DNA of 64,000 nucleotides from an uncultured Acidimicrobiia bacterium. Lineage in GTDB: Bacteria > Actinomycetota > Acidimicrobiia > Acidimicrobiales > AC-14. The notes under the pieces are model-generated. The model was not told where the DNA came from. It did no database searches and worked only from the letters and a program-made list of their open reading frames with translations. Location of the stretch: contig CAWIIV010000024.1 in the NCBI GenBank assembly GCA_963836205.1, positions 192,001 to 256,000 on the forward strand, read 5' to 3'. Numbering within the stretch: the first letter of the stretch is position 1; each line of letters starts with the position of its first letter. This document shows, in pieces, positions 13,009 through 59,175 of the stretch. The translations under genes were made by a program, and so were the position numbers.

Positions 13009-13060
13009 CGAACCGGTGACACTTTCGGGTCCTCTGACACCCGAAAACGTCACCGGTTGG
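13009..13060. repeat. Solo 52-bp REP-like palindrome (same family as units at 55973, 56978 and 57040)
   Basis: CGAACCGGTGAC...CCGAAAACGTCACCGGTTG between convergent genes. Confidence 0.8.
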
Positions 13061-47534: not shown

Positions 47535-48494
47535 CTATACCTCGATCTTTGTCATGCGGAAGATGATGAAGGAGCCCATCGCCACCATGGCCGCGGTGCC
47601 CATGAGCACCACCAGCCCCATCCCCCGGAACATCGGCTTCATGTAGTCGGGGCTGACGAAGTTGATGGCGAAGAGCATGAAGGGAGCCAGCGCGGTGAGC
47701 ACCCAGGCCGAGATCCGGCCCTCGGCGGTGAGCACCGCAACTTCCCGGCGCACTTCCTCACGGGCCCGGATGAAGTCGGCCAGCGTGTGCAGGAGGTCGG
47801 CCAGCTTGCCACCCACCTGCTGCTGGATGCGGATGGCCTGCACGACCCAGTCGAGGTCGCGGATCTGGAGGCGCTTGGCCATGCGGTCGAGCGCGTCCAC
47901 CACCGGGTCGCCCAGGCGGGTCTCCGAGACGAGCCGGGAGAACTCCTCCGACAGCGGCGGCGGCGACTCCTCGCACATCATCTGGATGGCACGCAGGAAC
48001 GTGTGCCCGGCCGACAGCGACGAGGCGATGAGGCCGAGGGCGTCGGGCAGGGCCGCTTCGAACGCCTTCTTGCGCCGGGCGATCCGCTGCTTGACGACCA
48101 CCGAGGCGATCAGTGGTCCGATGAGGGCCCCGAAGAGGGCGAAGAACCATGTCGACGACAGGGCCAGGAGCAGTGCGGCCAGGCCCAGGCTGCCGGCGAG
48201 GGTGACCAGGACGAACTCGCCCGGCCGCAACGGGATGCGAGCCCGCTCCAGCGACAAGGCCATGGAGCCCTTGCTGTCGAACTGGGTGACCATGCGCCCG
48301 GCGGCCTGGATCGTCCCCTCGACGAGCGGGCTCAGGTTCTCGGTGACACCCTCGACCCGGACGTCGCGCTCGCCGTAGGGCAGCTCGAGGATCTCGGCCA
48401 GCTGGCGCTGCCGGTCGCGGGACCGGGACAGCATGCCGACGACCACCAGCAACAGGCCGGCACCGACGGCGAAGACGGCGATCAACGTGGTCAT
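47535..48494 (-). CDS. tadB: Tad pilus assembly protein TadB
   Basis: LPDALGLIASSLSAGH, GGKLADLL and TAEGRIS motifs. Confidence 0.9.
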   Translation of the reverse strand: MTTLIAVFAVGAGLLLVVVGMLSRSRDRQRQLAEILELPYGERDVRVEGVTENLSPLVEGTIQAAGRMVTQFDSKGSMALSLERARIPLRPGEFVLVTLAGSLGLAALLLALSSTWFFALFGALIGPLIASVVVKQRIARRKKAFEAALPDALGLIASSLSAGHTFLRAIQMMCEESPPPLSEEFSRLVSETRLGDPVVDALDRMAKRLQIRDLDWVVQAIRIQQQVGGKLADLLHTLADFIRAREEVRREVAVLTAEGRISAWVLTALAPFMLFAINFVSPDYMKPMFRGMGLVVLMGTAAMVAMGSFIIFRMTKIEV

Positions 48495-50011
48495 TGGGCA
48501 CGCTCCGCCCGGGCCAGGGTGGACAGGGACGGGATGCGGGCGTTACGACCACCCCGGGCGGCAGCCGCAGGGGCCGCTCCCGGTGCCGCCGTCGGTGCCC
48601 GGAAGGCCTTGGCCGGGACCTCGATGCCGTTCTCGCCCAGCTTGTCGAGGAACTTGGGCCGCAGGCCGGTGGCCACCAGCTCGCCGTTGATGCGGCCGTT
48701 GTCGCCCCGGGCGAACTGCCGGAACTTGAAGATCTCCTGCAGCAGGATCGTCTCGCCCTCCATGCCCTGGAGCTCGGTCACCGAGGTGACCACGCGCCGG
48801 CCGTCGGAGAGACGGTCGAGGTGCATGATGATGTTCAGGGCGGAGGCGATCTGCTCCCGGATGGCCTTGACCGGGAGGTCGTAGCCGGCCATCAGCACCA
48901 TGGTCTCGATGCGGCTGAGGGCGTCGCGGGGGCTGTTGGAGTGGACCGTGGTCATCGAGCCCTCGTGGCCGGTGTTCATGGCCTGGAGCATGTCGAGGGA
49001 CTCGGCGCCACGAACCTCACCGACGATGATGCGGTCGGGACGCATACGGAGGGCGTTGCGGACCAGGTCGCGGATCTTGACCTCGCCGGCACCTTCCGCG
49101 TTGGGCGGGCGGGCCTCGAGGCTCAGGATGTGGGGCTGCTGGAGCTGGAGCTCGGCCGCGTCCTCGATGGTGACGATGCGCTCGCCCTCGGGGATGAACG
49201 ACGAGAGCACGTTGAGGTTGGTGGTCTTACCGGTGCCGGTACCACCGCTGACCAGGATGTTCAGCTTGCCCCGGACACAGGCCTCCATCACGACCGAGAG
49301 GTCGAGGGTGAAGGTGCCGAAGTTGATGAGGTCCTTGACCGTGTAGGGGTCGGCGGCGAACTTCCGGATCGTCATGATCGGGCCGTGGATGGCCAGCGGC
49401 GGGAGGATGGCGTTGACACGGGAGCCGTCGGGAAGGCGGGCGTCGACCATGGGCGACGACTCGTCGATGCGACGACCCACGGCGGACACGATCTTCTCGA
49501 TCACGTGCCGGTACTGCTGGTCGTCACCGAAGGCGGCGCCGGTGTGGTGGAGCTTGCCGTCGCGCTCGATCCAGATGTCGTCGTAGTTGTTGCACATGAT
49601 TTCTGTGATCGACGGGTCCTGGAGCAGCGGGTCGAGCGGCCCGTAGCCGAGGGTGTCCTGGATCATCTCCTGGAGGAAGGTGCGCCGCTCCCGGGGGGAG
49701 ATCTTGACGTCCTCCCGCGAGATGATGCGGTCGAGGGCGGACTTGACCTCGTTGGTGAGGCCCTCGGGGGTGAGCCCGTGGACCTTGGGCGCGACCTCGG
49801 CCAGGACGAGCTCCCGGACCTTCTTCTTGGACGCGTGCCACGAGGCGGCGGACGTCGCCCCCGCCCGCCGGGCGGTTGCGGCTTGACCGGTTTCGGTCGG
49901 TCGGGCTGCCACCCGCCTCCGGGCCGTTTCGCCGGACGACAGTGCCGACCGGGATGAGGTTGCCGCTCGTTCCTGGTCCTCCAGGGCTGCGAGCTTGTCT
50001 GAGAGTTTCAC
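48491..50011 (-). CDS. cpaF: Tad secretion ATPase TadA/CpaF
   Basis: GGTGTGKTT, IEDAAEL, LRMRPDRIIVGE and MNTGHEGS motifs. Confidence 0.93.
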   Translation of the reverse strand: MKLSDKLAALEDQERAATSSRSALSSGETARRRVAARPTETGQAATARRAGATSAASWHASKKKVRELVLAEVAPKVHGLTPEGLTNEVKSALDRIISREDVKISPRERRTFLQEMIQDTLGYGPLDPLLQDPSITEIMCNNYDDIWIERDGKLHHTGAAFGDDQQYRHVIEKIVSAVGRRIDESSPMVDARLPDGSRVNAILPPLAIHGPIMTIRKFAADPYTVKDLINFGTFTLDLSVVMEACVRGKLNILVSGGTGTGKTTNLNVLSSFIPEGERIVTIEDAAELQLQQPHILSLEARPPNAEGAGEVKIRDLVRNALRMRPDRIIVGEVRGAESLDMLQAMNTGHEGSMTTVHSNSPRDALSRIETMVLMAGYDLPVKAIREQIASALNIIMHLDRLSDGRRVVTSVTELQGMEGETILLQEIFKFRQFARGDNGRINGELVATGLRPKFLDKLGENGIEVPAKAFRAPTAAPGAAPAAAARGGRNARIPSLSTLARAERAQ

Positions 50012-50020
50012 GGTCCTCCC

Positions 50021-51283
50021 TTAAGAGCCGGTCGATTGAGGAGTCAGGTGGAAGATGCGGCTGAACAGGCCGGCTTTCCTTGCGCCAGGCTCGGCGAAGG
50101 CGGGCACCTTGGACTGCATGCCCTCGGGCAGCAGGGGCGCCATGCCAGCGGCCATGCGCTTGCTGACTTCGGAGTTGGGGTTGAAGGCCAGGATGGGCGT
50201 ACCGACGTTGACCGACTTGCTGACCTCCCGGGCGTACGGAAGTACCGAGGCGAAGCCCTGGGAGAACAGCTTGGTGATCTGGTCGATGTCGATGCCGACG
50301 TCGCGCTCGGCCTTGTTGAGGATGAGCTTGACGTTGTCGGACGGGATCTTCAGCTTGTCGAGGGTGTTGAGGAACACGCCCATGTTGCGGACGCTGGGCA
50401 GGTCCATGGTGGCCATGATGTAGAGCTGGTCGGACAGGTCGAAGGCGGCCAGGACGATCTCGGTGAGCGCCGCCGGCGTGTCGACCACGACGTAGTCGAA
50501 CTTGGCCCGCGCCGCCTCGATCACCCGGGCCACGTCGGCCGGGTGGATCCGGTCGGCGTCGGACGGGTCCTTGGGGGCGGCGAGCACCTGCACGCCACTG
50601 TCGTGGGCCACCACGTACTCCTGGATGTGGGCCTCGAGGTCTCCCTCGTCCTGTTCCTCACGGGCCAGCAGGTCGGAGATGGTGAACCGGGGCCGCAAGC
50701 GGAGGGCGGTGGAGACCTCGCCGAACTGCAGGTCGAGGTCGATGATGCAGGTGCGCTTGCCGGTGTGCTGGTGGAGGAAGTAGGCGAGGTTGGTCGAGTA
50801 GAAGGTCTTGCCGCAGCCGCCGGTGGCAGAGGCGACGGTGAAGACCGCACCCTGCTTGCCATGGCCGGCGACGACCGTGGTGGCCGGAGCGCTGCTTATC
50901 CGGGGCCGGCTGACCCCCACGGCGCGCTCGATGGCGTCGTGGAGCATCCGGTCCGACACCGGGAGCTGGAGCAGGTCCAGCGCCCCGGTGCGGACGATGT
51001 CACGGAGGGCGGCGTCAGGCCGCTTGTCGAAGGCAAGGAGGAGGCTCATGGCCGGCGACTCGTCATGCAGGGCCTGCATGCGGGCCAGGCTGGCCTTGGT
51101 CCCCAGGCTGGGCCCGGCGATCATCACGTCGAACGGACCGCTGCTGGCGATCACCTCGTTCACGATGGCCAGCCGATCGCACGGCACCACCTCGGGGCGG
51201 GGCCGGAGGTCTCCGGCCACCCCCCGGACCTGGTCAGCCAGGTCCGGTTCCTTTTCGACTACGAGGATCTTCGGGTTTCGCAC
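50021..51283 (-). CDS. cpaE: TadZ/CpaE (receiver-like plus MinD ATPase)
   Basis: ATGGCGKT, IDLDLQFG and VVVDTP motifs. Confidence 0.85.
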   Translation of the reverse strand: MRNPKILVVEKEPDLADQVRGVAGDLRPRPEVVPCDRLAIVNEVIASSGPFDVMIAGPSLGTKASLARMQALHDESPAMSLLLAFDKRPDAALRDIVRTGALDLLQLPVSDRMLHDAIERAVGVSRPRISSAPATTVVAGHGKQGAVFTVASATGGCGKTFYSTNLAYFLHQHTGKRTCIIDLDLQFGEVSTALRLRPRFTISDLLAREEQDEGDLEAHIQEYVVAHDSGVQVLAAPKDPSDADRIHPADVARVIEAARAKFDYVVVDTPAALTEIVLAAFDLSDQLYIMATMDLPSVRNMGVFLNTLDKLKIPSDNVKLILNKAERDVGIDIDQITKLFSQGFASVLPYAREVSKSVNVGTPILAFNPNSEVSKRMAAGMAPLLPEGMQSKVPAFAEPGARKAGLFSRIFHLTPQSTGS

Positions 51284-51292
51284 AGGGGGCCC

Positions 51293-52021
51293 CTACAGAA
51301 CCTGAAGGGCAGACTCGACACCGGCACCGGGCGTCTCGCCGACGGCGGGGGCGTCCTTGGCCACGAGGGAGAAGTACAGCGACTCGAAGCTCGTCAGGTA
51401 GACGAGGCGCTCGGCCTCGACGGGGCTGACGGAGAGCAGGAACACCAGGCCGGGAGCGGAAGGCTGTCCGGGGGTGGCGATCAGGTTCGTGCCGTTGACG
51501 TTCAGGACCTCGGTGTTCTGCATGATCAGCTTGACCGCGCCGCCGGGGGTGCCTGCGCCCGGCTTCTGGACGGCGTAGATGTTGATGCGGTCACCGGCGC
51601 CGGCGAACCCGGCAACACCCGGCACGTTGGCCAGCTCGAGGGCGAGAGCGGTCTTGCCCTCGGGGATCTTGAGGGTGCCGATGCGGGTCTGGGTCGCCTG
51701 GAACTGGGAGTCCGTGATGATCTGGCCCTCGGGCACGCCCAGGATGGCGGAGCGGCCGGCGAGCTGGGTCGGGTCGGTGAGGGCGTTGGCGGGCTTGACC
51801 GAGTCGGCCACCACCTTGCTCTTCACAAAGCCGTTGTTGGCCGCGTCGGCACCGTTGGTGCCTGCGGGGATGGGCTTGGCGGCCACGAGCACGGCGACCT
51901 TGCCGGATCCGACGGCGGGGGAGTTGTCCCCGTTGTCGCGCAGGATCAGGAAGGTGGCCATCGCGCCGACGATGAAGACGGCGAGGCCGAGGGTAACAAT
52001 CACGTTTGAGCGCTTAGCCAT
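51293..52021 (-). CDS. cpaB: Flp pilus assembly protein CpaB/RcpC
   Basis: SAF domain (VLVAAKPIPAG), GVAGF..AGDRI. Confidence 0.85.
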   Translation of the reverse strand: MAKRSNVIVTLGLAVFIVGAMATFLILRDNGDNSPAVGSGKVAVLVAAKPIPAGTNGADAANNGFVKSKVVADSVKPANALTDPTQLAGRSAILGVPEGQIITDSQFQATQTRIGTLKIPEGKTALALELANVPGVAGFAGAGDRINIYAVQKPGAGTPGGAVKLIMQNTEVLNVNGTNLIATPGQPSAPGLVFLLSVSPVEAERLVYLTSFESLYFSLVAKDAPAVGETPGAGVESALQVL

Positions 52022-52082
52022 TGGGTTGTCGGCTCCTGGTCGGGGTTAGTCGTAGGGGCAGTGATTCGAATTGCCCACTGAG

Positions 52083-52160
52083 TTGTCGGCTGGCTCCCTG
52101 CCGACCTGTAGCCGGTTTTTCGTAACGCACCCTCAAGCTGGGGCGGTTTCCATCCGATAC
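52083..52160. promoter_or_regulatory. Divergent sigma-28-like promoters for cpaB and tadE
   Basis: TACA-N16-GCCGACAA (-) and TCAA-N16-TCCGATAC (+). Confidence 0.6.
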
Positions 52161-52212
52161 CTCACCCGAACGACCGAGAAGGGGCCTACAAGTGGGGATC
52201 GAGGAGCCGACC

Positions 52213-52674
52213 GTGAGTAACAGCCGTCTTTCCGCGCCGGGCGCGGGCACCCGTCGGCGGTGCCGCCGCGGGGATGAGTCCGGAGCCGCCCTGGTGGAGT
52301 TCGCCCTGGTGGTGGGACTGTTCGTGTTCATCCTGTACGGGCTGATCTGGTTCGGCATGATGCTCGCCCTCAAGCAGGGCGTCACCAACGCCGCCGCAGA
52401 GGGGGCCCGGTCCGCCGTCGGCCTCACCGGTGCCGCCGCCCAGACCAAGGCCAAGGCCACCGTCGCCGACCGCCTGGGGTGGCTGGGCAGCAACTACGAC
52501 CCGAACAACGTCACCGTCGACCTCCCCGCGCCCTGCGTCGGCGGCGCCGGCACGTGCATCACGGTGAAGATCGAGTACCCGTGGGAGGACCGTCCCCTGG
52601 TCCCCGCGGCTCCCGGCCTGAACTTCGTGGCGGTCGACAAGATCGCCTCCGAGGCGACCGTCCAGATCTCATGA
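52213..52674 (+). CDS. tadE: TadE-like pseudopilin
   Basis: DESG|AALVEFALV...AAAEGAR; start could be 52192. Confidence 0.85.
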   Translation: MSNSRLSAPGAGTRRRCRRGDESGAALVEFALVVGLFVFILYGLIWFGMMLALKQGVTNAAAEGARSAVGLTGAAAQTKAKATVADRLGWLGSNYDPNNVTVDLPAPCVGGAGTCITVKIEYPWEDRPLVPAAPGLNFVAVDKIASEATVQIS

Positions 52675-54308
52675 GCGCCGGTCGACTTCAGAACGTGTTC
52701 TTCCGGCGCACCCCGGACGAGCGGGGCGCCATCCTGGTGCTCTCGACGGTCGGCATCGTGCTGGCCATGATCTTCTCGGCCATGGCCGTCGACCTCGGCT
52801 TCACCGCCCAGGAGGCCCGCCGCAACCAGAAGGTGGCCGACCTGGCCGCCCTCGACGCGGTGCGCGACCTGGCCAACCACCAGGCGATCGCCAGCCAGAG
52901 CGCCAACGTCCGCAACAAGTTCCCCACCGGGGCGGGCAACACCGTCGTCTCCCAACGGGGCACCTGGAACGGCACGACCTTCGTGCCCAATGGCGCCGGC
53001 GAGGATGTCGAGGTCACCGTGACCTCGCCCCACACCGACCTCTTCCCGTTCGTCGCCGGCGCCGACAGCGTCACCCGGCGGGCGGTGGCCAACCTCCAGG
53101 AGCGGGCGTCGTTCGACCTCGGCTCCAAGCTGGCCTCGCTGAACCCCGGCGACAACACGCTGCTGAACCAGGTGTTCTCGGCGATCCTGGGCACCAGCCC
53201 GGCGATCAACATGAACCTCGTCAGCTACCAGGGCCTCACCAGCGGCACCGTCTCCCTGACGGAGATCGCGGCCGCCGACCTCGGCCTGGGCACCGCTCAG
53301 CAGCTGGCCACCAGCAACATCGAGCTGAAGCGGCTGGCCACGGCCACCCTCAAGGCCCTCCAGACCAAGGCCGCCGGCGGCGACCTGGCGGCCCTCGCGG
53401 CCGCCACCGCCCTGGGGACGTTCGCCACCAACATCCCGTCCGACCTGCACGTGAACATGGGGCAGATCCTCGGCGTCAACGCACCCGACGACCCGTCGGC
53501 CCTGAGCGCCCAGCTCGGCGTGTTCAACCTGATCAGCACCGGTGGCCAGGCGGCGCAGATCGCCAACGGCCACAACTTCCTCAACATCCCGAACCTCACC
53601 CTCGGGATCCCGAACCTGGCGACGTCCCATCTCCAGCTGCACCTGATCGAGACGCCTCGGATCGCTCTGCCGGGCCCGGCCCGTCAGGTGCCGATGGACG
53701 CGTTGCTCTTCCCGACGGGCTGGCAGACGTGGGCCAAGACGGCGCAGATCGGCATCACCCTGACCACCAAGATCTCCATCGGTTGCGGGTTCCTCGCCTT
53801 GACCTGCGTGGAGGTCGACCTGCCCATCGTGATCGACGGGGCCAAGGCGTTCGGCTCGCTCACCGACGTGCGGTGCGCGGCGCCCAACAAGTACGACGAC
53901 ATCCTGGTCTCGACCCTGGCCACGCAGGCCCAGGCTGCGATCACCGCCAAGGTGAAGCTGCTGGGCATCACCCTGCCGCTCCCGTCGATCGCCAACGCCT
54001 CCGTGCCCCTCGGCGGTGGGTCGGCGACGCTGACGTTCCAGAACAAGGCACCCGTGCCCGGGCCCGAGTACCCGACCGACGTCCAGTCCACCGCTGCCAC
54101 CGGCCTCGGACTGGCCACCCTGCTCACCAGCCAGCTCAACCTGCTCGGAATCCCCCTCGGGAACCTCCTGTCGCTGCTGCAGCCGGTGACCGACGCCATC
54201 GACAACCAGATCCTCAAGCCGGTGTTCGAGTCCCTCGGCCTCACCGTCGGCGGCGCCGACGTGCGGACCCTGAGCGTCGACTGCGGTACGCCGACTCTGA
54301 TCCACTGA
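52671..54308 (+). CDS. TadG-like pilus-associated protein
   Basis: DERG|AILV, AVDLG..Q..ADLAALDA Tad N-terminal motif. Confidence 0.75.
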   Translation: MSAGRLQNVFFRRTPDERGAILVLSTVGIVLAMIFSAMAVDLGFTAQEARRNQKVADLAALDAVRDLANHQAIASQSANVRNKFPTGAGNTVVSQRGTWNGTTFVPNGAGEDVEVTVTSPHTDLFPFVAGADSVTRRAVANLQERASFDLGSKLASLNPGDNTLLNQVFSAILGTSPAINMNLVSYQGLTSGTVSLTEIAAADLGLGTAQQLATSNIELKRLATATLKALQTKAAGGDLAALAAATALGTFATNIPSDLHVNMGQILGVNAPDDPSALSAQLGVFNLISTGGQAAQIANGHNFLNIPNLTLGIPNLATSHLQLHLIETPRIALPGPARQVPMDALLFPTGWQTWAKTAQIGITLTTKISIGCGFLALTCVEVDLPIVIDGAKAFGSLTDVRCAAPNKYDDILVSTLATQAQAAITAKVKLLGITLPLPSIANASVPLGGGSATLTFQNKAPVPGPEYPTDVQSTAATGLGLATLLTSQLNLLGIPLGNLLSLLQPVTDAIDNQILKPVFESLGLTVGGADVRTLSVDCGTPTLIH

Positions 54309-54365
54309 TCCCCCCACCTCGTCACGCTTGACGGAGCACCCGGGTCGGCTCGATAGCCTGCCCGG

Positions 54366-54688
54366 GTGCTTCGTCATGTGGCGGTCTTCAGGTGGGTGGA
54401 GGGCACGCCGGCCGCCTCGGTGGAGGCCTTCGCGATCGGGGCTGGCCGGGCTACCGGCGGTGATCCCGGAGATCCGGTCGTACCGGTTCGGGCCCGGACG
54501 CGGGGCTGGGGATGTCGGCCAACGCCGACTACGCGGTGGTGGCCGACTTCGACGACGCCGACGGGTACGCGGCCTACGCCGGACACCCGGCCCATCAGGA
54601 CGTGATCGTGCGGCTCCTGCGCCCGATCGTGGCCGAGCGGCTCTCGGTGCAGTTCACGCTTCCTCGTCCGGGATCGGCGGAGGGATAG
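54366..54688 (+). CDS. Dabb (stress-responsive alpha/beta barrel) protein, two apparent frameshifts
   Basis: VLRHVAVFRW / LPAVIPEIRSYRFGPD / DYAVVADF...YAGHPAH across three frames. Confidence 0.7.
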
Positions 54689-55349
54689 GCGCCGACCGCA
54701 GGTACCCGGTGATGTCGTCGGCCCGGTAGAGGTTGTGCGTGGCCGGGTGCTGGGGTGACTTGCCGACCACGGTTCCGTCCCGCCGCACGCCCCAGAAGCC
54801 CTCGTAGGCCTGCTTGGGCCGGTGGGGGTCGGTGATGTAGTGGGGCACCTGCTCCACCAGGTCGAAGCCGGGCCGGGACGCGGCCCACGACGGCTCGTCG
54901 AGGAAGAGCACGATCCGGGGGTCGAAGGCGTCGATGGCGTGCGCCACCCGCTCGGGCTGCCCGGCGGCGGGCAGGAGGGTGGTGAGGGAGAGCGCCTCGG
55001 TGGCTCCCCAACGGGGCTGGCGGAGGCGGAAGAGGGTCACCGACCACCGGCGGACCTCGGCCCAGAAACCCATGGGGTCGGGGTAGTAGAAGCCCTGGTG
55101 GGGCGTGCCGAGGGTGAGGGGCAGCTCCTGCCACGGGATGAGGGGATCGCGCCACACCGGCTCCTTGGTGGTGACCAGGAGGAGCCAGGGGTTCAGGCTG
55201 CCGGGGGCGTTGGGGGGCCAGTCGCCCAGGCGGTCGGCCAGGCCCTTGGTGGCCCGCCGGTTCTGGGTGCGCGCCGAGTCCAGGCGGTCCTCGGGATTGA
55301 TCGAGAACAGCTTGGTGTCACCCCGATGGCGGCGGGCTTCGGTGCGTAT
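54654..55349 (-). CDS. Hypothetical protein
   Basis: ORF 54654..55157 stays open upstream to ~55349 with typical codon usage; start codon unclear. Confidence 0.5.
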   Translation of the reverse strand: MRTEARRHRGDTKLFSINPEDRLDSARTQNRRATKGLADRLGDWPPNAPGSLNPWLLLVTTKEPVWRDPLIPWQELPLTLGTPHQGFYYPDPMGFWAEVRRWSVTLFRLRQPRWGATEALSLTTLLPAAGQPERVAHAIDAFDPRIVLFLDEPSWAASRPGFDLVEQVPHYITDPHRPKQAYEGFWGVRRDGTVVGKSPQHPATHNLYRADDITGYLRSAPIPPPIPDEEA

Positions 55350-55375: not shown

Positions 55376-55963
55376 ATGCTCGTGGTCGGGTTGACGGGTG
55401 GCATCGGGTCGGGGAAGTCGACGGTGTCGTCGTTGCTGGCCGACCGGGGGGCCCTGGTGGTCGACACCGACGCCGTCGCCCGCCAGGTGGTGGCTCCCGG
55501 GGGTGCCGCCCACGAAGCCCTGGTCCGCCGGTTCGGTCCGTCGTTGGCCGCCGACCGCCGGGCGCTGGCAGGGGTGGTGTTCGCCGATCGGTCGGCCCTG
55601 GCCGACCTCAACGCCATCGTCCACCCTGCGGTCCGGGAGGAGGTGGCCCGGCGGATGGCGGAGCTCCGGGAGCGGGGCGCCGAAGTGGTCGTGCTGGCGG
55701 TTCCCCTCCTGGTGGAGACCGGCGGCGCCTACGACGTGGACGCGGTGGTCGTCGTCGACTGCCCGGAGGAGATCGCCGTTCGCCGCCTGGTCGAGCGCCG
55801 GGGCATGGACGAGGCCGACGTCCGTCGCCGGATGGCCGCCCAGGCGTCCCGCGAGCAACGCCTGGCCGTCGCCGACGTCGTCATCCACAACGACGGCCCC
55901 ATGGACGACCTCGAGGCCCAGGCCGACGAGACCTGGGAGTGGATCCAGGAGCTGTTGGGGTAG
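55376..55963 (+). CDS. coaE: Dephospho-CoA kinase
   Basis: VGLTGGIGSGKST, LNAIVHP and VPLLVE motifs. Confidence 0.93.
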   Translation: MLVVGLTGGIGSGKSTVSSLLADRGALVVDTDAVARQVVAPGGAAHEALVRRFGPSLAADRRALAGVVFADRSALADLNAIVHPAVREEVARRMAELRERGAEVVVLAVPLLVETGGAYDVDAVVVVDCPEEIAVRRLVERRGMDEADVRRRMAAQASREQRLAVADVVIHNDGPMDDLEAQADETWEWIQELLG

Positions 55964-55972
55964 CCCGAGTGA

Positions 55973-56024
55973 CGAACTGGTGACAGATCCGGGGGTCAGG
56001 GCCACCGAAAATGTCACCGGTTGC
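55973..56024. repeat. 52-bp palindromic unit abutting the stop codon of DUF559 gene B
   Basis: 44/52 identical to the reverse complement of 57040-57091. Confidence 0.85.
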
Positions 56025-56945
56025 TCAGGCGGCGACCGCCGTGCCGAGGAGGCGCAGGAGCTCGGAGACGACCCATGCCGGCCGTTCGACGAGGTCGCCC
56101 CACGTGAAGCGCACGACCCGCCAGCCGGCCCGGTGGAGCCGCCGGTCACGGGCTTCGTCAGCCTCCTGGTCGAGCTTGGCGGAGTGGTGGCGGTGACTGT
56201 CGAGCTCGATCAGCAGGCGGGCGGGCGGGTAGGCGACGTCGACCCGCCCGATCCATTCGGCGTCGTCGCCCACGTCCAACTGGCGGACGGGTTCGGCGAG
56301 GCCGGCGTCTCGGACGAGATCGCGGAAGCGGGCTTCCAACTCGCTCGCGGGCGGGATGTAGCCCTCGGCACGGGCGGCCAACAGACGCCGCATCACGGCC
56401 GTGCCCTTGCGACCTCGGCTGGCGAGGTCGAAGAAGGCAGCCTGGAGGGTCCCGGGAGTGGCGACGCCCATCGCCAGGCAGTTGTCGATCGCCCGCTCCG
56501 TCTTCCCCGGGTGGAGCACGCCGGCGAGGTCGCAGAGCGTGCGGGCCACCCTCGTGGTGACGATGCCCTCGACGACCGTCAGGTGATGTTCCGGGAATGG
56601 CCGCCACCGGTGGACGAGCTCGCTGTCGGTCCGGTGCCGCCGGGGCCGGGGCGTGGTCACTTCGACGAGCCCGCGGCGCTCGAAGCCGGGGATGCCGAGG
56701 AGCGCGGCCGCCGACCGGTGCGAGGCGGCCGCCGCCGGACCGGCCGCCAGGACAAGCCCGTGAAGCCGTTGCTCCCAGGTCCGTGGGGATCCCAGGATCC
56801 GGTACACATTGACCGCCACCTGCTCCCAATGGCCCGATCGGAGCCGGTGTCTTGTCGCCTCCCGGGTGAAGCCGAGACCCGCAATTTGCGCGCCGCTCAC
56901 GAGGCCGTGCTGCCTTTCAGCAAGTTCCATGAGTTCTCGATCCAT
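56025..56945 (-). CDS. AbiEi-antitoxin-like N-terminus with DUF559/PD-(D/E)xK-like C-terminus (gene B)
   Basis: LAERQHGLV, SHRSAAALLG, RTLCDLA, SELEARF, RVDVAYP..LIELDS..HH, GWRVVRFTW. Confidence 0.85.
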   Translation of the reverse strand: MDRELMELAERQHGLVSGAQIAGLGFTREATRHRLRSGHWEQVAVNVYRILGSPRTWEQRLHGLVLAAGPAAAASHRSAAALLGIPGFERRGLVEVTTPRPRRHRTDSELVHRWRPFPEHHLTVVEGIVTTRVARTLCDLAGVLHPGKTERAIDNCLAMGVATPGTLQAAFFDLASRGRKGTAVMRRLLAARAEGYIPPASELEARFRDLVRDAGLAEPVRQLDVGDDAEWIGRVDVAYPPARLLIELDSHRHHSAKLDQEADEARDRRLHRAGWRVVRFTWGDLVERPAWVVSELLRLLGTAVAA

Positions 56946-56977
56946 TTCGCGACGATGCCACACGTCGCGCACGATCG

Positions 56978-57091
56978 GCAACCGGTGACGTTTTCGGGGG
57001 TCCCCGCCCCCAGATCCCTCACCAGTTCGGTGACGGTCGGCAACCGGTGACGTTTTCGGGGGTCCCCGCCCCCAGATCCGTCACCAGTTCG
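56978..57091. repeat. Two tandem 52-bp palindromic units (62-bp period) upstream of gene B
   Basis: GCAACCGGTGACGTTTTCGGGGGTCCCCGCCCCCAGATCC(C/G)TCACCAGTTCG twice. Confidence 0.9.
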
Positions 57092-57128: not shown

Positions 57129-59175
57129 ATGCCTCCGTTCCGGGTTGTGAGCGACTTCGAGCCGGGGGGCGACCAGCCCAAGGCCATCGAGGGGCTCACG
57201 CGCGGGGTCCAGCGGGGCGACCGGTTCCAGACGCTCCTGGGCATCACGGGCAGCGGCAAGTCGGCCACCATCGCCTGGACCATCGAGGCGGTACAGAAGC
57301 CCACGCTCGTCATCGCGCCCAACAAGTCGCTCGCGGCCCAGCTGGCCAACGAGTTCAAGGAGTTCTTCCCCGACAACCGGGTCGAGTACTTCGTCTCCTA
57401 CTACGACTACTACCAGCCCGAGGCCTACATCCCCTCGAGCGACACGTACATCGAGAAGGACTCGTCGATCAACGACGAGATCGACCGCCTCCGCCACTCG
57501 CGCCACGTCCGGCCTCCTCGCCCGGCGGGACGTCATCGTCGTGGCCAGCGTGTCGTGCATCTACGGCCTGGGCTCGCCCGAGGAGTACGCCACCCAGGTC
57601 CTCCGCCTTCAACCCGGCGAGGAGCATCCCCAGCGGGCCATCCTCAGCCGGCTGGTCGACATGCAGTACGAGCGCAACGACGTGAACTTCGTCCGGGGCA
57701 AGTTCCGGGTGCGGGGCGACACCATCGAGGTCTTCCCCGCCTACGACGAGATGGGCGTGCGCATCGAGCTGTTCGGCGACGAGGTCGAGCGCATCAGCCG
57801 GGTCGACCCCCTCACCGGCGAGCTCATCGCCGACATCAAGGAGCTCGAGATCTTCCCCGCCACCCATTACGTGGCCGGCGAGATGCGCATGAAACGGGCC
57901 ATCGTCCAGATCGAGGAGGAGCTTCAGCACCGGCTCAAGTGGTTCGAGAACGAGGGCAAGCTGCTCGAGGCCCAGCGGCTGCGGATGCGCACCCAGTACG
58001 ACCTGGAGATGATGCAGGAGGTCGGCTTCTGCAACGGCATCGAGAACTACTCCCGCCACATCGACGGCCGCCGGCCGGGCGAGGCCCCCAACACCCTCCT
58101 CGACTTCTTCCCCGACGACTTCCTCCTGGTCATCGACGAGTCGCACGTCACCGTCCCCCAGCTCCACGGCCAGTACGAGGGCGACCGGTCCCGGAAGGAG
58201 ACCCTCGTCGACCACGGGTTCCGTCTCCCGTCGGCGGCCGACAACCGGCCCCTGCGCTTCGACGAGTGGTACGAGAAGGTCAATCAGTGCATCTTCTTGT
58301 CCGCCACCCCTTCGCCGTACGAGATCTCCCAGTCCAGCCAGGTGGTGGAGCAGGTGGTGCGGCCCACCGGCCTCACCGATCCCGAGGTGGTGGTCAAGCC
58401 CACCAAGGGCCAGATCGACGACCTCATGGAGCAGATCAAGGTCACCGTCGAGCGGGGCGACCGGGTGCTCGTCACCACTCTCACCAAGAAGATGGCCGAA
58501 GACCTCACCGACTACCTGCTCGAGCTGGGCGTGCGGGTGCGCTACCTGCACAGCAACGTCGACACCGTCCAGCGCATCGAGATCCTCCGCGACCTGCGGC
58601 TGGGGGAGTTCGACGTCCTCGTCGGCATCAACCTCCTCCGGGAGGGGCTCGACCTGCCCGAGGTCAGCCTGGTGTGCATCCTCGACGCCGACAAGGAGGG
58701 CTTCCTCCGCAGCGAGACGTCGCTCATCCAGACCATGGGCCGGGCCGCCCGCAACGTCGACGGCCAGGTGATCATGTACGCCGACAAGGTCACCGACTCC
58801 ATGCAGCGGGCCATCTCCGAGACCAACCGCCGCCGGGGGGTGCAGGAGGCCTACAACCTCGAGCACGGCATCGACCCCCAGACCATCCGCAAGGCGGTCA
58901 CCGACATCCTCGCCACCCTGCGGCCGGAAGGCGACGGCAAGTCGCCGATGCCCGGCAAGGACAAGCGGTCCCGGCGGCGTGACCGCTCCCGGTCCGACTT
59001 CTCCGAGCTGCCCCGCGAGGAGCTGGCCCGGCTCATCCAGACCCTCGAGGAGGAGATGAAGTCGGCCGCCGCCGATCTCCGCTTCGAGTACGCGGCCCGC
59101 CTGCGGGATGAGGTCCACGACCTGAAGCGGGAGCTGAAGGAGATGGAGGAAGGGCTCAGGCCGGCATCGGCCTAG
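57129..59175 (+). CDS. uvrB: Excinuclease ABC subunit B (apparent +1 insertion near 57501)
   Basis: [22 protein letters not shown]; DESH and [10 protein letters not shown] in the second frame. Confidence 0.93.

Follow-up and report, generated by a model that had tools for sequence, protein, structure and literature searches.

An AbiEi-DUF559 nuclease gene bracketed by its own dispersed palindromes in an Acidimicrobiia genome: a candidate repeat partner other than RAYT

The window analysed here is a stretch of 64,000 nucleotides from the genome of a soil actinobacterium (Acidimicrobiia; 4.05 Mb, 88.6% complete), which is called G000. Within it, a nuclease gene is located between coaE and uvrB, with one palindromic unit at its stop codon and two tandem units upstream. 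This layout had been proposed in a preliminary description of the DNA, and both the positions and the inversion of the downstream unit were confirmed. Read in the inverted orientation, the downstream unit is 85% and 83% identical to the two upstream units over 52 nt (44/52 and 43/52). The features of the locus, together with one distant unit of the same family, are given below.

13011..13058, no strand: single dispersed unit, belonging to the same family of 149; the matching site carries no unit in the genomes G001, G002 and G005
55376..55963, plus strand: coaE (dephospho-CoA kinase; Pfam CoaE 6.8e-55), the convergent, downstream neighbour of the nuclease gene
55973..56024, no strand: downstream palindromic unit (48-bp core 55975-56022), 3 bp past the nuclease stop codon and inverted relative to the upstream units
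56025..56945, minus strand: nuclease gene, 306 aa, ATG at 56945 (assigned from Pfam, PADLOC AbiEi, the AF2 model, fold matches and conservation)
56952..56981, minus strand: putative leaderless promoter, read by eye
56978..57029, no strand: proximal upstream unit (core 56980-57027), with one arm mismatch
57040..57091, no strand: distal upstream unit (core 57042-57089), a 62-bp tandem copy of the proximal unit at 97%
57129..59175, plus strand: uvrB, the divergent upstream neighbour, named from its sequence; its frame shifts near 57500

The start of the nuclease gene had been placed at a TTG at 56981; the starts of the orthologues indicate that the ATG at 56945 is likely to be used instead. By eye, a -10-like CATCGT was observed 6 nt before this ATG, and a -35-like TTGCCG overlaps the end of the proximal unit. 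The G005 orthologue presents the near-consensus arrangement TTGCAA-17-CATAAT-6-ATG in the same register as the putative promoter. Contigs of relatives matched at 80% carry 0 or 2 units behind the nuclease gene. Among public sequencing runs, none was a close match (best share 0.14), and no RNA run was present among the matches listed.

Several further observations concern the surroundings. The uvrB gene (57129-59175) is split by a frameshift near 57500, which is likely an assembly error, as the contigs of relatives differ there by one base. A 167-aa reading frame without a Pfam match (54654-55157, minus strand) is located just upstream of coaE, and a similar frame was seen beside coaE in G012. 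Positions 48491-54376 hold a Tad/Flp pilus-like gene cluster (names by eye), which ends in a 22-bp inverted repeat (54329-54376) that is probably a terminator.

The unit had been described as a 52-bp palindrome with some 30 bp between its arms. The palindrome stands, but the conserved core is 48 bp long (AACYGGTGAC-N27/28-GTCACCRGTT) and its interior measures 27-28 bp. A genome-wide count, which had been proposed as a check, identified 115 exact units and 149 with no more than two arm mismatches in the 4.05-Mb genome, compared with 0 in three block-shuffled genomes. These fall into 100 clusters, of which 64 are single units; as judged with our own rough gene caller, 9 clusters lie within predicted coding sequence and most begin behind a stop codon, no more than 31 bp from it. 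Where units stand in tandem, 26 of the 36 first periods are 60-63 bp, and the longer ten are weakly phased to the helix (R about 0.48). Half-sites are weakly enriched beside units (13/200 vs 72/1938), and a depletion of solo arms in the genome was not significant (17 vs 23 expected). Six predicted genes (on C6, C12, C15, C22 and C23) stop at a TGA inside a unit arm, so that their proteins end in N-R or N-W. A Ku-like gene is also bracketed by units, which was taken as chance given the 100 clusters.

The arms are nearly invariant across the genome. Their degenerate position, 4/45, showed no covariation (31 paired vs 31.7 expected), and covariation within the interior is weak (over 72 clusters, 6.4 of 11 pairs compared with 5.8, a value that none of 2000 permutations reached). 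As single-stranded DNA hairpins the units are moderately stable, with one of five folds significant (z -3.3; the others -0.8 to -1.6). No G.T preference was observed on the mRNA strand (60 GT vs 69 CA), and an RNA-level role was rejected on this ground. Judged from the arm and interior covariation, the lack of a G.T preference and the one fold in five that beats its shuffles, the unit is a DNA-level palindrome, and these results point both ways as to recognition as a duplex or as a hairpin. An Rfam search returned no family (three chance matches, E 2-3.6), and neither the type of arm wobble nor the unit orientation showed a link to local GC skew that would indicate a replication-strand bias.

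The nuclease is composed of three parts, namely a winged helix (about residues 1-53), an AbiEi C-terminal fold (54-192) and a DUF559 nuclease of the Vsr/EDxHD type (about 198-304). Both AbiEi_4 and DUF559 scored above the Pfam cut-offs and PADLOC gave strong AbiEi matches (5e-28); a search of NCBIfam with the protein gave no match, and a PDB sequence search gave nothing below E 0.1. In the AF2 model (pLDDT 88), residues 1-192 matched the AbiEi structure 6y8q (Z 13.3, rmsd 3.9, 178 aligned), and residues of about 198-304 matched I-Bth0305I (3r3p; Z 13.2), NGO0050 (3hrl; Z 13.0) and Vsr (1cw0; Z 10.9). The catalytic-type residues are kept in nearly all of the 117 full-length homologues: E204 in 114, D236 in 116, E247 in 114, H254 in 117 and D263 in 109. 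The D-H-D spacing is 18/9, compared with 17/9 for D196/H213/D222 of I-Bth0305I (PMC3239194), a correspondence drawn from the spacing and the overall superposition range, not atom by atom.

Against six homologues of the genus, dN/dS was 0.16-0.29; the gene is vertically inherited and under purifying selection. The winged helix is its fastest-changing part, with 50% identity compared with 80% for the middle domain. The AbiEi partner AbiEii (PF08843) is not next to the gene, where coaE and uvrB lie, and was not found in the 88.6%-complete genome; neither was a Y1 transposase (PF01797). The genome gives two GIY-YIG matches, both within large ORFs (644 and 699 aa).

Bracketing is defined here as a repeat common to the upstream and downstream flanks of a gene, with a local score of at least 36. 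The 182 loci with a match to the nuclease gave 145 distinct ones, of which 117 with a full-length gene and enough flank were kept and 28 were dropped. The obtained results showed bracketing in 79 of the 117 homologues, compared with 25 of 1072 genes of G000 and 1 of the 198 ORFs that neighbour the homologues in these loci, which demonstrates the enrichment of flanking palindromes that the preliminary description had proposed to look for. Without the rows from unpublished genomes the count was 76/114. The remaining 38 were not bracketed, and 29 of these have the intact E-D-H-D set. The hairpin score alone separates homologues poorly from other genes (101/117 vs 126/400), and the shared-repeat test was therefore relied on.

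The flanking repeats differ in sequence from homologue to homologue, with their length kept at about 47-54 bp. Palindrome pairs scoring at least 20 rose from 3% at less than 35% protein identity to 85% at more than 70%. Palindrome similarity followed protein identity with a Mantel rho of 0.20 (null maximum 0.12; 101 rows), and a 4-base arm box, scored over the 51 rows that share one, required 19 changes on a quick ML tree; none of 200 shuffles required fewer than 32. Each clade thus has its cognate palindrome family, as had been suggested; because kin share labels, this signal is one of co-inheritance, not of co-evolution. Across 58 genomes of the family, at least 15 exact units were found in 16 of the 25 that have a homologue at least 54% identical (one of the 16 being the unpublished G033) and in 2 of the 33 that do not; coaE is missing from the assemblies of these two as well. 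No exact unit was counted in four genomes that do have a close homologue, 9 units occur in G013, where no homologue was found, and the units beside the nuclease gene of G002 are of a style that is in the minority in that genome.

Seven paralogues are present in G000 and, apart from the window nuclease itself, are 31-40% identical to it. Six non-overlapping repeat families, of 135, 31, 29, 26, 16 and 12 units, were recovered with them. Five of these adjoin only their own paralogue. The sixth (16 units) was seeded from the flanks of orthologues in other genomes; its copy beside the G000 paralogue is split by an IS30-like element, and the seventh paralogue seeded no repeat family. Units occur on both sides only at the window gene; the other G000 paralogues have them on one side only. 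Together, the flank enrichment, the clade-specific repeats, the pairs of paralogue and family and the fact that no Y1 transposase was found bear out the proposed cognate partnership of gene and palindrome without a RAYT. As side observations, the IS30-like element (G000:C15:273600-275200) interrupts the palindrome that precedes the C15 paralogue and is accompanied by a short duplication. Families of different paralogues were also seen at the same intergenic site between species, or directly behind a left-over arm (G000:C24:86273 compared with G005; G000:C21:9369).

The association extends to DUF559 proteins without an AbiEi part. The stand-alone DUF559 protein YcjD of E. coli is 34% identical to the window nuclease domain over 53 aa. 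At its gene (L031:1700-1930, the fabI-ycjD region of K-12), a repeat lies about 200 bp behind and a partial inverted repeat lies over the stop; a separate perfect hairpin was observed upstream of ycjD. The pattern of the adjoining repeat occurs 21 times in K-12 and matches BoxC sequences (PMC2267715 supplement). From 80 returned loci, 44 distinct metagenome homologues of YcjD at no more than 65% identity were surveyed, closer or short-flank ones being left out; many of the 44 are from related enterobacteria. A BoxC-like motif was located downstream in 34/44 and upstream in 18/44, and 19/44 were bracketed, compared with 4/292 control windows. Because stand-alone DUF559 genes also abut BoxC-like repeats, the nuclease domain is the shared element.

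To follow the units between species, 59 unit sites were drawn from G001, G002 and G005. They come from matches to an orientation-biased pattern, of which the first 30 of 75 were used for G001 and the full sets of 23 and 21 for G002 and G005. Of these, 53 are colinear in G000, and 43 of the 53 carry a unit there too (flanks 87% alike). For G001, interiors at shared sites were 0.38 alike, compared with 0.36 for shuffled pairing and 0.62 within its own genome (n=13); the corresponding values were 0.53, 0.48 and 0.51 for G005 (n=13) and 0.57, 0.56 and 0.60 for G002 (n=17). A small orthologous excess was present for G005 and G001 (p 0.024 and 0.046). Unit-free orthologous spacers, chosen as controls for a length similar to the units, were 0.71 (G001, n=21), 0.67 (G005, n=27) and 0.61 (G002, n=15) alike. 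The position and the arms of a unit are kept and its interior takes the style of the resident genome, clearly for G001 and partially for G005, the G002 value being close to that of shuffled pairing. As synonymous sites are near saturation between these species (pS 0.48-0.60), low identity between orthologous interiors could by itself be drift. The real argument for rewriting is the interior style shared genome-wide, which could also result from ordinary gene conversion by RecA or from selection acting on binding sites. REPINs at conserved positions are overwritten likewise according to REPORTH (10.1101/2024.10.14.618302). Units on G001:C11 and C12 are in the G000 style rather than that of G001, possibly owing to bin contamination.

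Units were also identified in frame within genes. A MidA-like methyltransferase gene (G000:C11:160404-160451) has a copy number that varies between species, with 1-5 units in six of eight genus genomes and none in two. Its shortest filled form is in frame and exceeds the empty form by 39 bp, since the unit's initial 12 bases (R-T-G-D) take the place of ancestral R-T-G-E codons, which already match the unit arm at 8 of 12 positions. In genera outside this one, including the unit-free G044, the site reads E-R-T-A-D-G-W or similar at the empty length, and solved relatives have the short loop. From the arm-like ancestral codons and the empty-length outgroups, the unit here therefore grew on a pre-existing half-site, a model drawn from this one clean site. 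Other in-gene units, located in a DnaE2-like polymerase (by eye; C15:356917-357026), an ABC protein (C6:646043-646182) and one gene at C20:82448-82495, have no clean borders. Pairs of empty and filled sites gave no consistent target-site duplication, the genomes compared being only about 87% alike.

The mobility of the gene itself was assessed at 30 coaE loci. The nuclease gene is adjacent in 16, including all seven genus genomes with coaE assembled; in 4, uvrB is 11-92 bp away with no palindrome (two of these from the unpublished G017 and G063), 3 have other inserts and 7 are rearranged or cut. Empty coaE-uvrB sites, which the preliminary description had proposed to seek, are found in the family (4/30 loci) and in none of the seven genus genomes with coaE assembled. 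Elsewhere in G007, G016 and G050 there are second copies whose units share the same arms. At L087 and L130, the coaE-uvrB gap is filled by a gene from another clade of the AbiEi-DUF559 family, which is oriented the other way and has a palindrome of its own; this would reflect either an independent arrival or an old inversion. Homologues were found on 2 of 72,556 plasmids, 50,697 phage records held none, and viral contigs gave three weak partial matches. Two further observations were made at this site: an insertion of ~2.6 kb with an IS110-like frame (name by eye) lies between the nuclease gene and uvrB at L061 (G001), and in G031 (L097/L190) the coaE-uvrB copy is shortened (about 257 aa), with an intact bracketed copy elsewhere in the genome.

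Movement as a cassette, which had been put forward for this gene, is not supported for the window copy, which has a fixed place at coaE-uvrB throughout the genus as well as in other genera of the family. A gene fixed and syntenic in relatives had been named as evidence against the whole proposal, and this is what the seven of seven genus genomes with coaE assembled present. Such fixation counts against a mobile cassette and not against a REP partner, because RAYT genes behave likewise, staying at one site and relocating rarely (10.1101/2021.07.10.451892). Like RAYTs, the nuclease gene is a long-established resident and seldom moves.

The reading that we favour, to which the sequence comparisons give slightly better than even chances, is that of a domesticated repeat-partner nuclease that would recognise and nick its own units, with copy-repair spreading and homogenising them. 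The protein would recognise the invariant arms at their fixed spacing, either in duplex DNA or in an extruded or single-stranded hairpin, and would probably use the proximal unit to repress its putative leaderless promoter. Occasionally it may nick one of its units, or a site that resembles an arm, and the nick would be repaired by host recombination with another unit as template. Such copy-repair could rewrite interiors, grow tandem arrays and, from time to time, found a new site.

The units might instead be binding sites (operators, or sites for chromosome organisation, termination or mRNA stability) that selection maintains and ordinary gene conversion keeps uniform, with no part for the nuclease in their spread. 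Much at the locus is compatible with this: residues 1-192 are AbiEi-like (Z 13.3) and AbiEi binds inverted repeats at its own promoter, the proximal unit overlaps the -35-like box, 43 of the 53 colinear sites have kept a unit across species, most lie no more than 31 bp from a stop codon, and the lack of covariation at arm position 4/45 fits duplex recognition. We nevertheless consider it unlikely, as it leaves the conserved catalytic residues unexplained and accounts neither for the in-frame coding insertions, which range from 0 to 5 units between species, nor for the inverted copy behind the stop codon, nor for the fact that stand-alone DUF559 genes, which lack the AbiEi part, are bracketed too. 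Its RNA-hairpin form is further opposed by the lack of a G.T preference on the mRNA strand. Far less probable is an orphan type IV antitoxin or Vsr-like repair enzyme that stands beside a common repeat by chance. The strong PADLOC AbiEi matches (5e-28) would suit such a protein, and 100 unit clusters do bracket some genes by chance, such as the Ku-like gene; however, AbiEii is neither adjacent nor found in the genome, and the family-wide bracketing with different repeats largely refutes it.

A true mobile element, in which the gene and its flanking palindromes move as a cassette and mobilise the solo units by excision and integration, would account for the same-arm second copies in G007, G016 and G050, for the different clade in opposite orientation at two coaE-uvrB loci, and for the 4 of 30 coaE loci where uvrB lies 11-92 bp away with no palindrome left. 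It is opposed by the fixation of the window copy in seven of seven genus genomes and its position beside coaE in 16 of 30 family loci, by the lack of a multi-copy identical cassette in G000 (paralogues 31-40%), by the near-absence from plasmids, phages and viral contigs, and by the lack of a consistent target duplication in the empty/filled pairs examined. As we also know of no strand-transfer chemistry for the Vsr fold, we regard this account as improbable. Marginally more doubtful still is a principal role like that of Ssn, in which a site-specific single-strand nuclease cuts hairpin-bearing incoming or replicating DNA and so tunes recombination and gene transfer, the spread of repeats being a side effect. 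The gene-between-repeats layout, as in NTS-ssnA-NTS, the small excess of interior complementarity (6.4 vs 5.8 of 11 pairs) and the length of ~47-54 bp kept across unrelated sequences are in its favour, whereas the fold is not GIY-YIG, the folds of the units are mostly no stronger than shuffles, and unit orientation has no link to local GC skew. This role is not exclusive of the repeat-partner nuclease that we prefer, and the two are compatible.

The pairing of nuclease and palindrome is real, widespread and apparently unpublished. In the open-licence literature searched, no description was found that ties DUF559 or AbiEi-DUF559 to flanking repeats: DUF559 and Vsr do not occur in the main text of PMC11893778, PMC3424549 in its available text places DUF559 only with Vsr and the homing endonucleases, and the word 'Actinobacteria' is absent from the available text of PMC3733652 (Di Nocera 2013). 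More broadly, and with somewhat less than even chances, we propose that DUF559 (the Vsr fold) is a third widespread class of repeat-partner nuclease beside RAYT and Ssn. Its AbiEi-fused members would be a naturally diversified set of site-specific nickases that have one ~48-bp palindrome each as their target and that found and rewrite repeats by nick-and-copy on arm-like half-sites, not by transposition, and stand-alone YcjD would be the missing BoxC enzyme.

The pairing bears on how short palindromic repeats originate and remain uniform in bacteria without a RAYT, and a candidate enzyme family can now be named for the actinobacterial repeats. Through YcjD, it also provides a candidate enzyme for E. 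coli BoxC that is directly testable in K-12. The proposal would reassign the very common annotation 'AbiEi antitoxin / DUF559'. It further offers a natural library of enzyme-target pairs, with six orthogonal pairs in one genome and the target beside each gene.

Among known systems, the AbiEi type IV antitoxins (6y8q; Rv2827c, 1zel) share the fold of residues 1-192 and the inverted repeat at the own promoter, which AbiEi binds (10.64898/2026.01.19.700257). Unlike AbiE, the present protein is fused to a nuclease and has no AbiEii partner, and its repeat is dispersed genome-wide and also lies downstream. The EDxHD/Vsr-like nucleases (I-Bth0305I, Vsr, NGO0050, YcjD) share the fold and the acidic/histidine active-site pattern of residues 198-304. 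I-Bth0305I also has a DNA-binding module in front of its nuclease (PMC3239194), and YcjD-type genes likewise adjoin repeats, those of BoxC. In contrast to an EDxHD homing endonuclease, the gene is free-standing and intergenic, not placed in an intron or intein, and the sequence that it may target is a multicopy repeat on its flanks rather than a gene-less allele; in contrast to Vsr, it has no dcm neighbour.

The Ssn system of Neisseria (SsnA with the NTS, or SRM) is alike in that the gene of a non-transposase nuclease is flanked by its own dispersed hairpin repeat, with many cognate pairs across bacteria (PMC11893778). SsnA is a small single-domain GIY-YIG single-strand nuclease, whereas the present protein is a three-part fusion of AbiEi and DUF559. 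The REPtron (a RAYT with its REP or REPIN) differs in its enzyme, as the RAYT is an HUH/Y1 transposase and not an AbiEi fold joined to a Vsr fold; here, moreover, the host belongs to the Actinomycetota (Acidimicrobiia) and the unit is one 48-bp palindrome. The two systems nonetheless have much in common. In both, a single-copy chromosomal gene is flanked by a cognate palindrome that co-varies with the enzyme (10.1101/2021.07.10.451892; PMC3733652), keeps the same extragenic site within a lineage and is rare on plasmids. In both, the repeat is scattered in many extragenic copies whose arms are conserved and whose interior varies, a genome can carry several systems, each with its own repeat, and the repeats at conserved positions are overwritten over time (10.1101/2024.10.14.618302).
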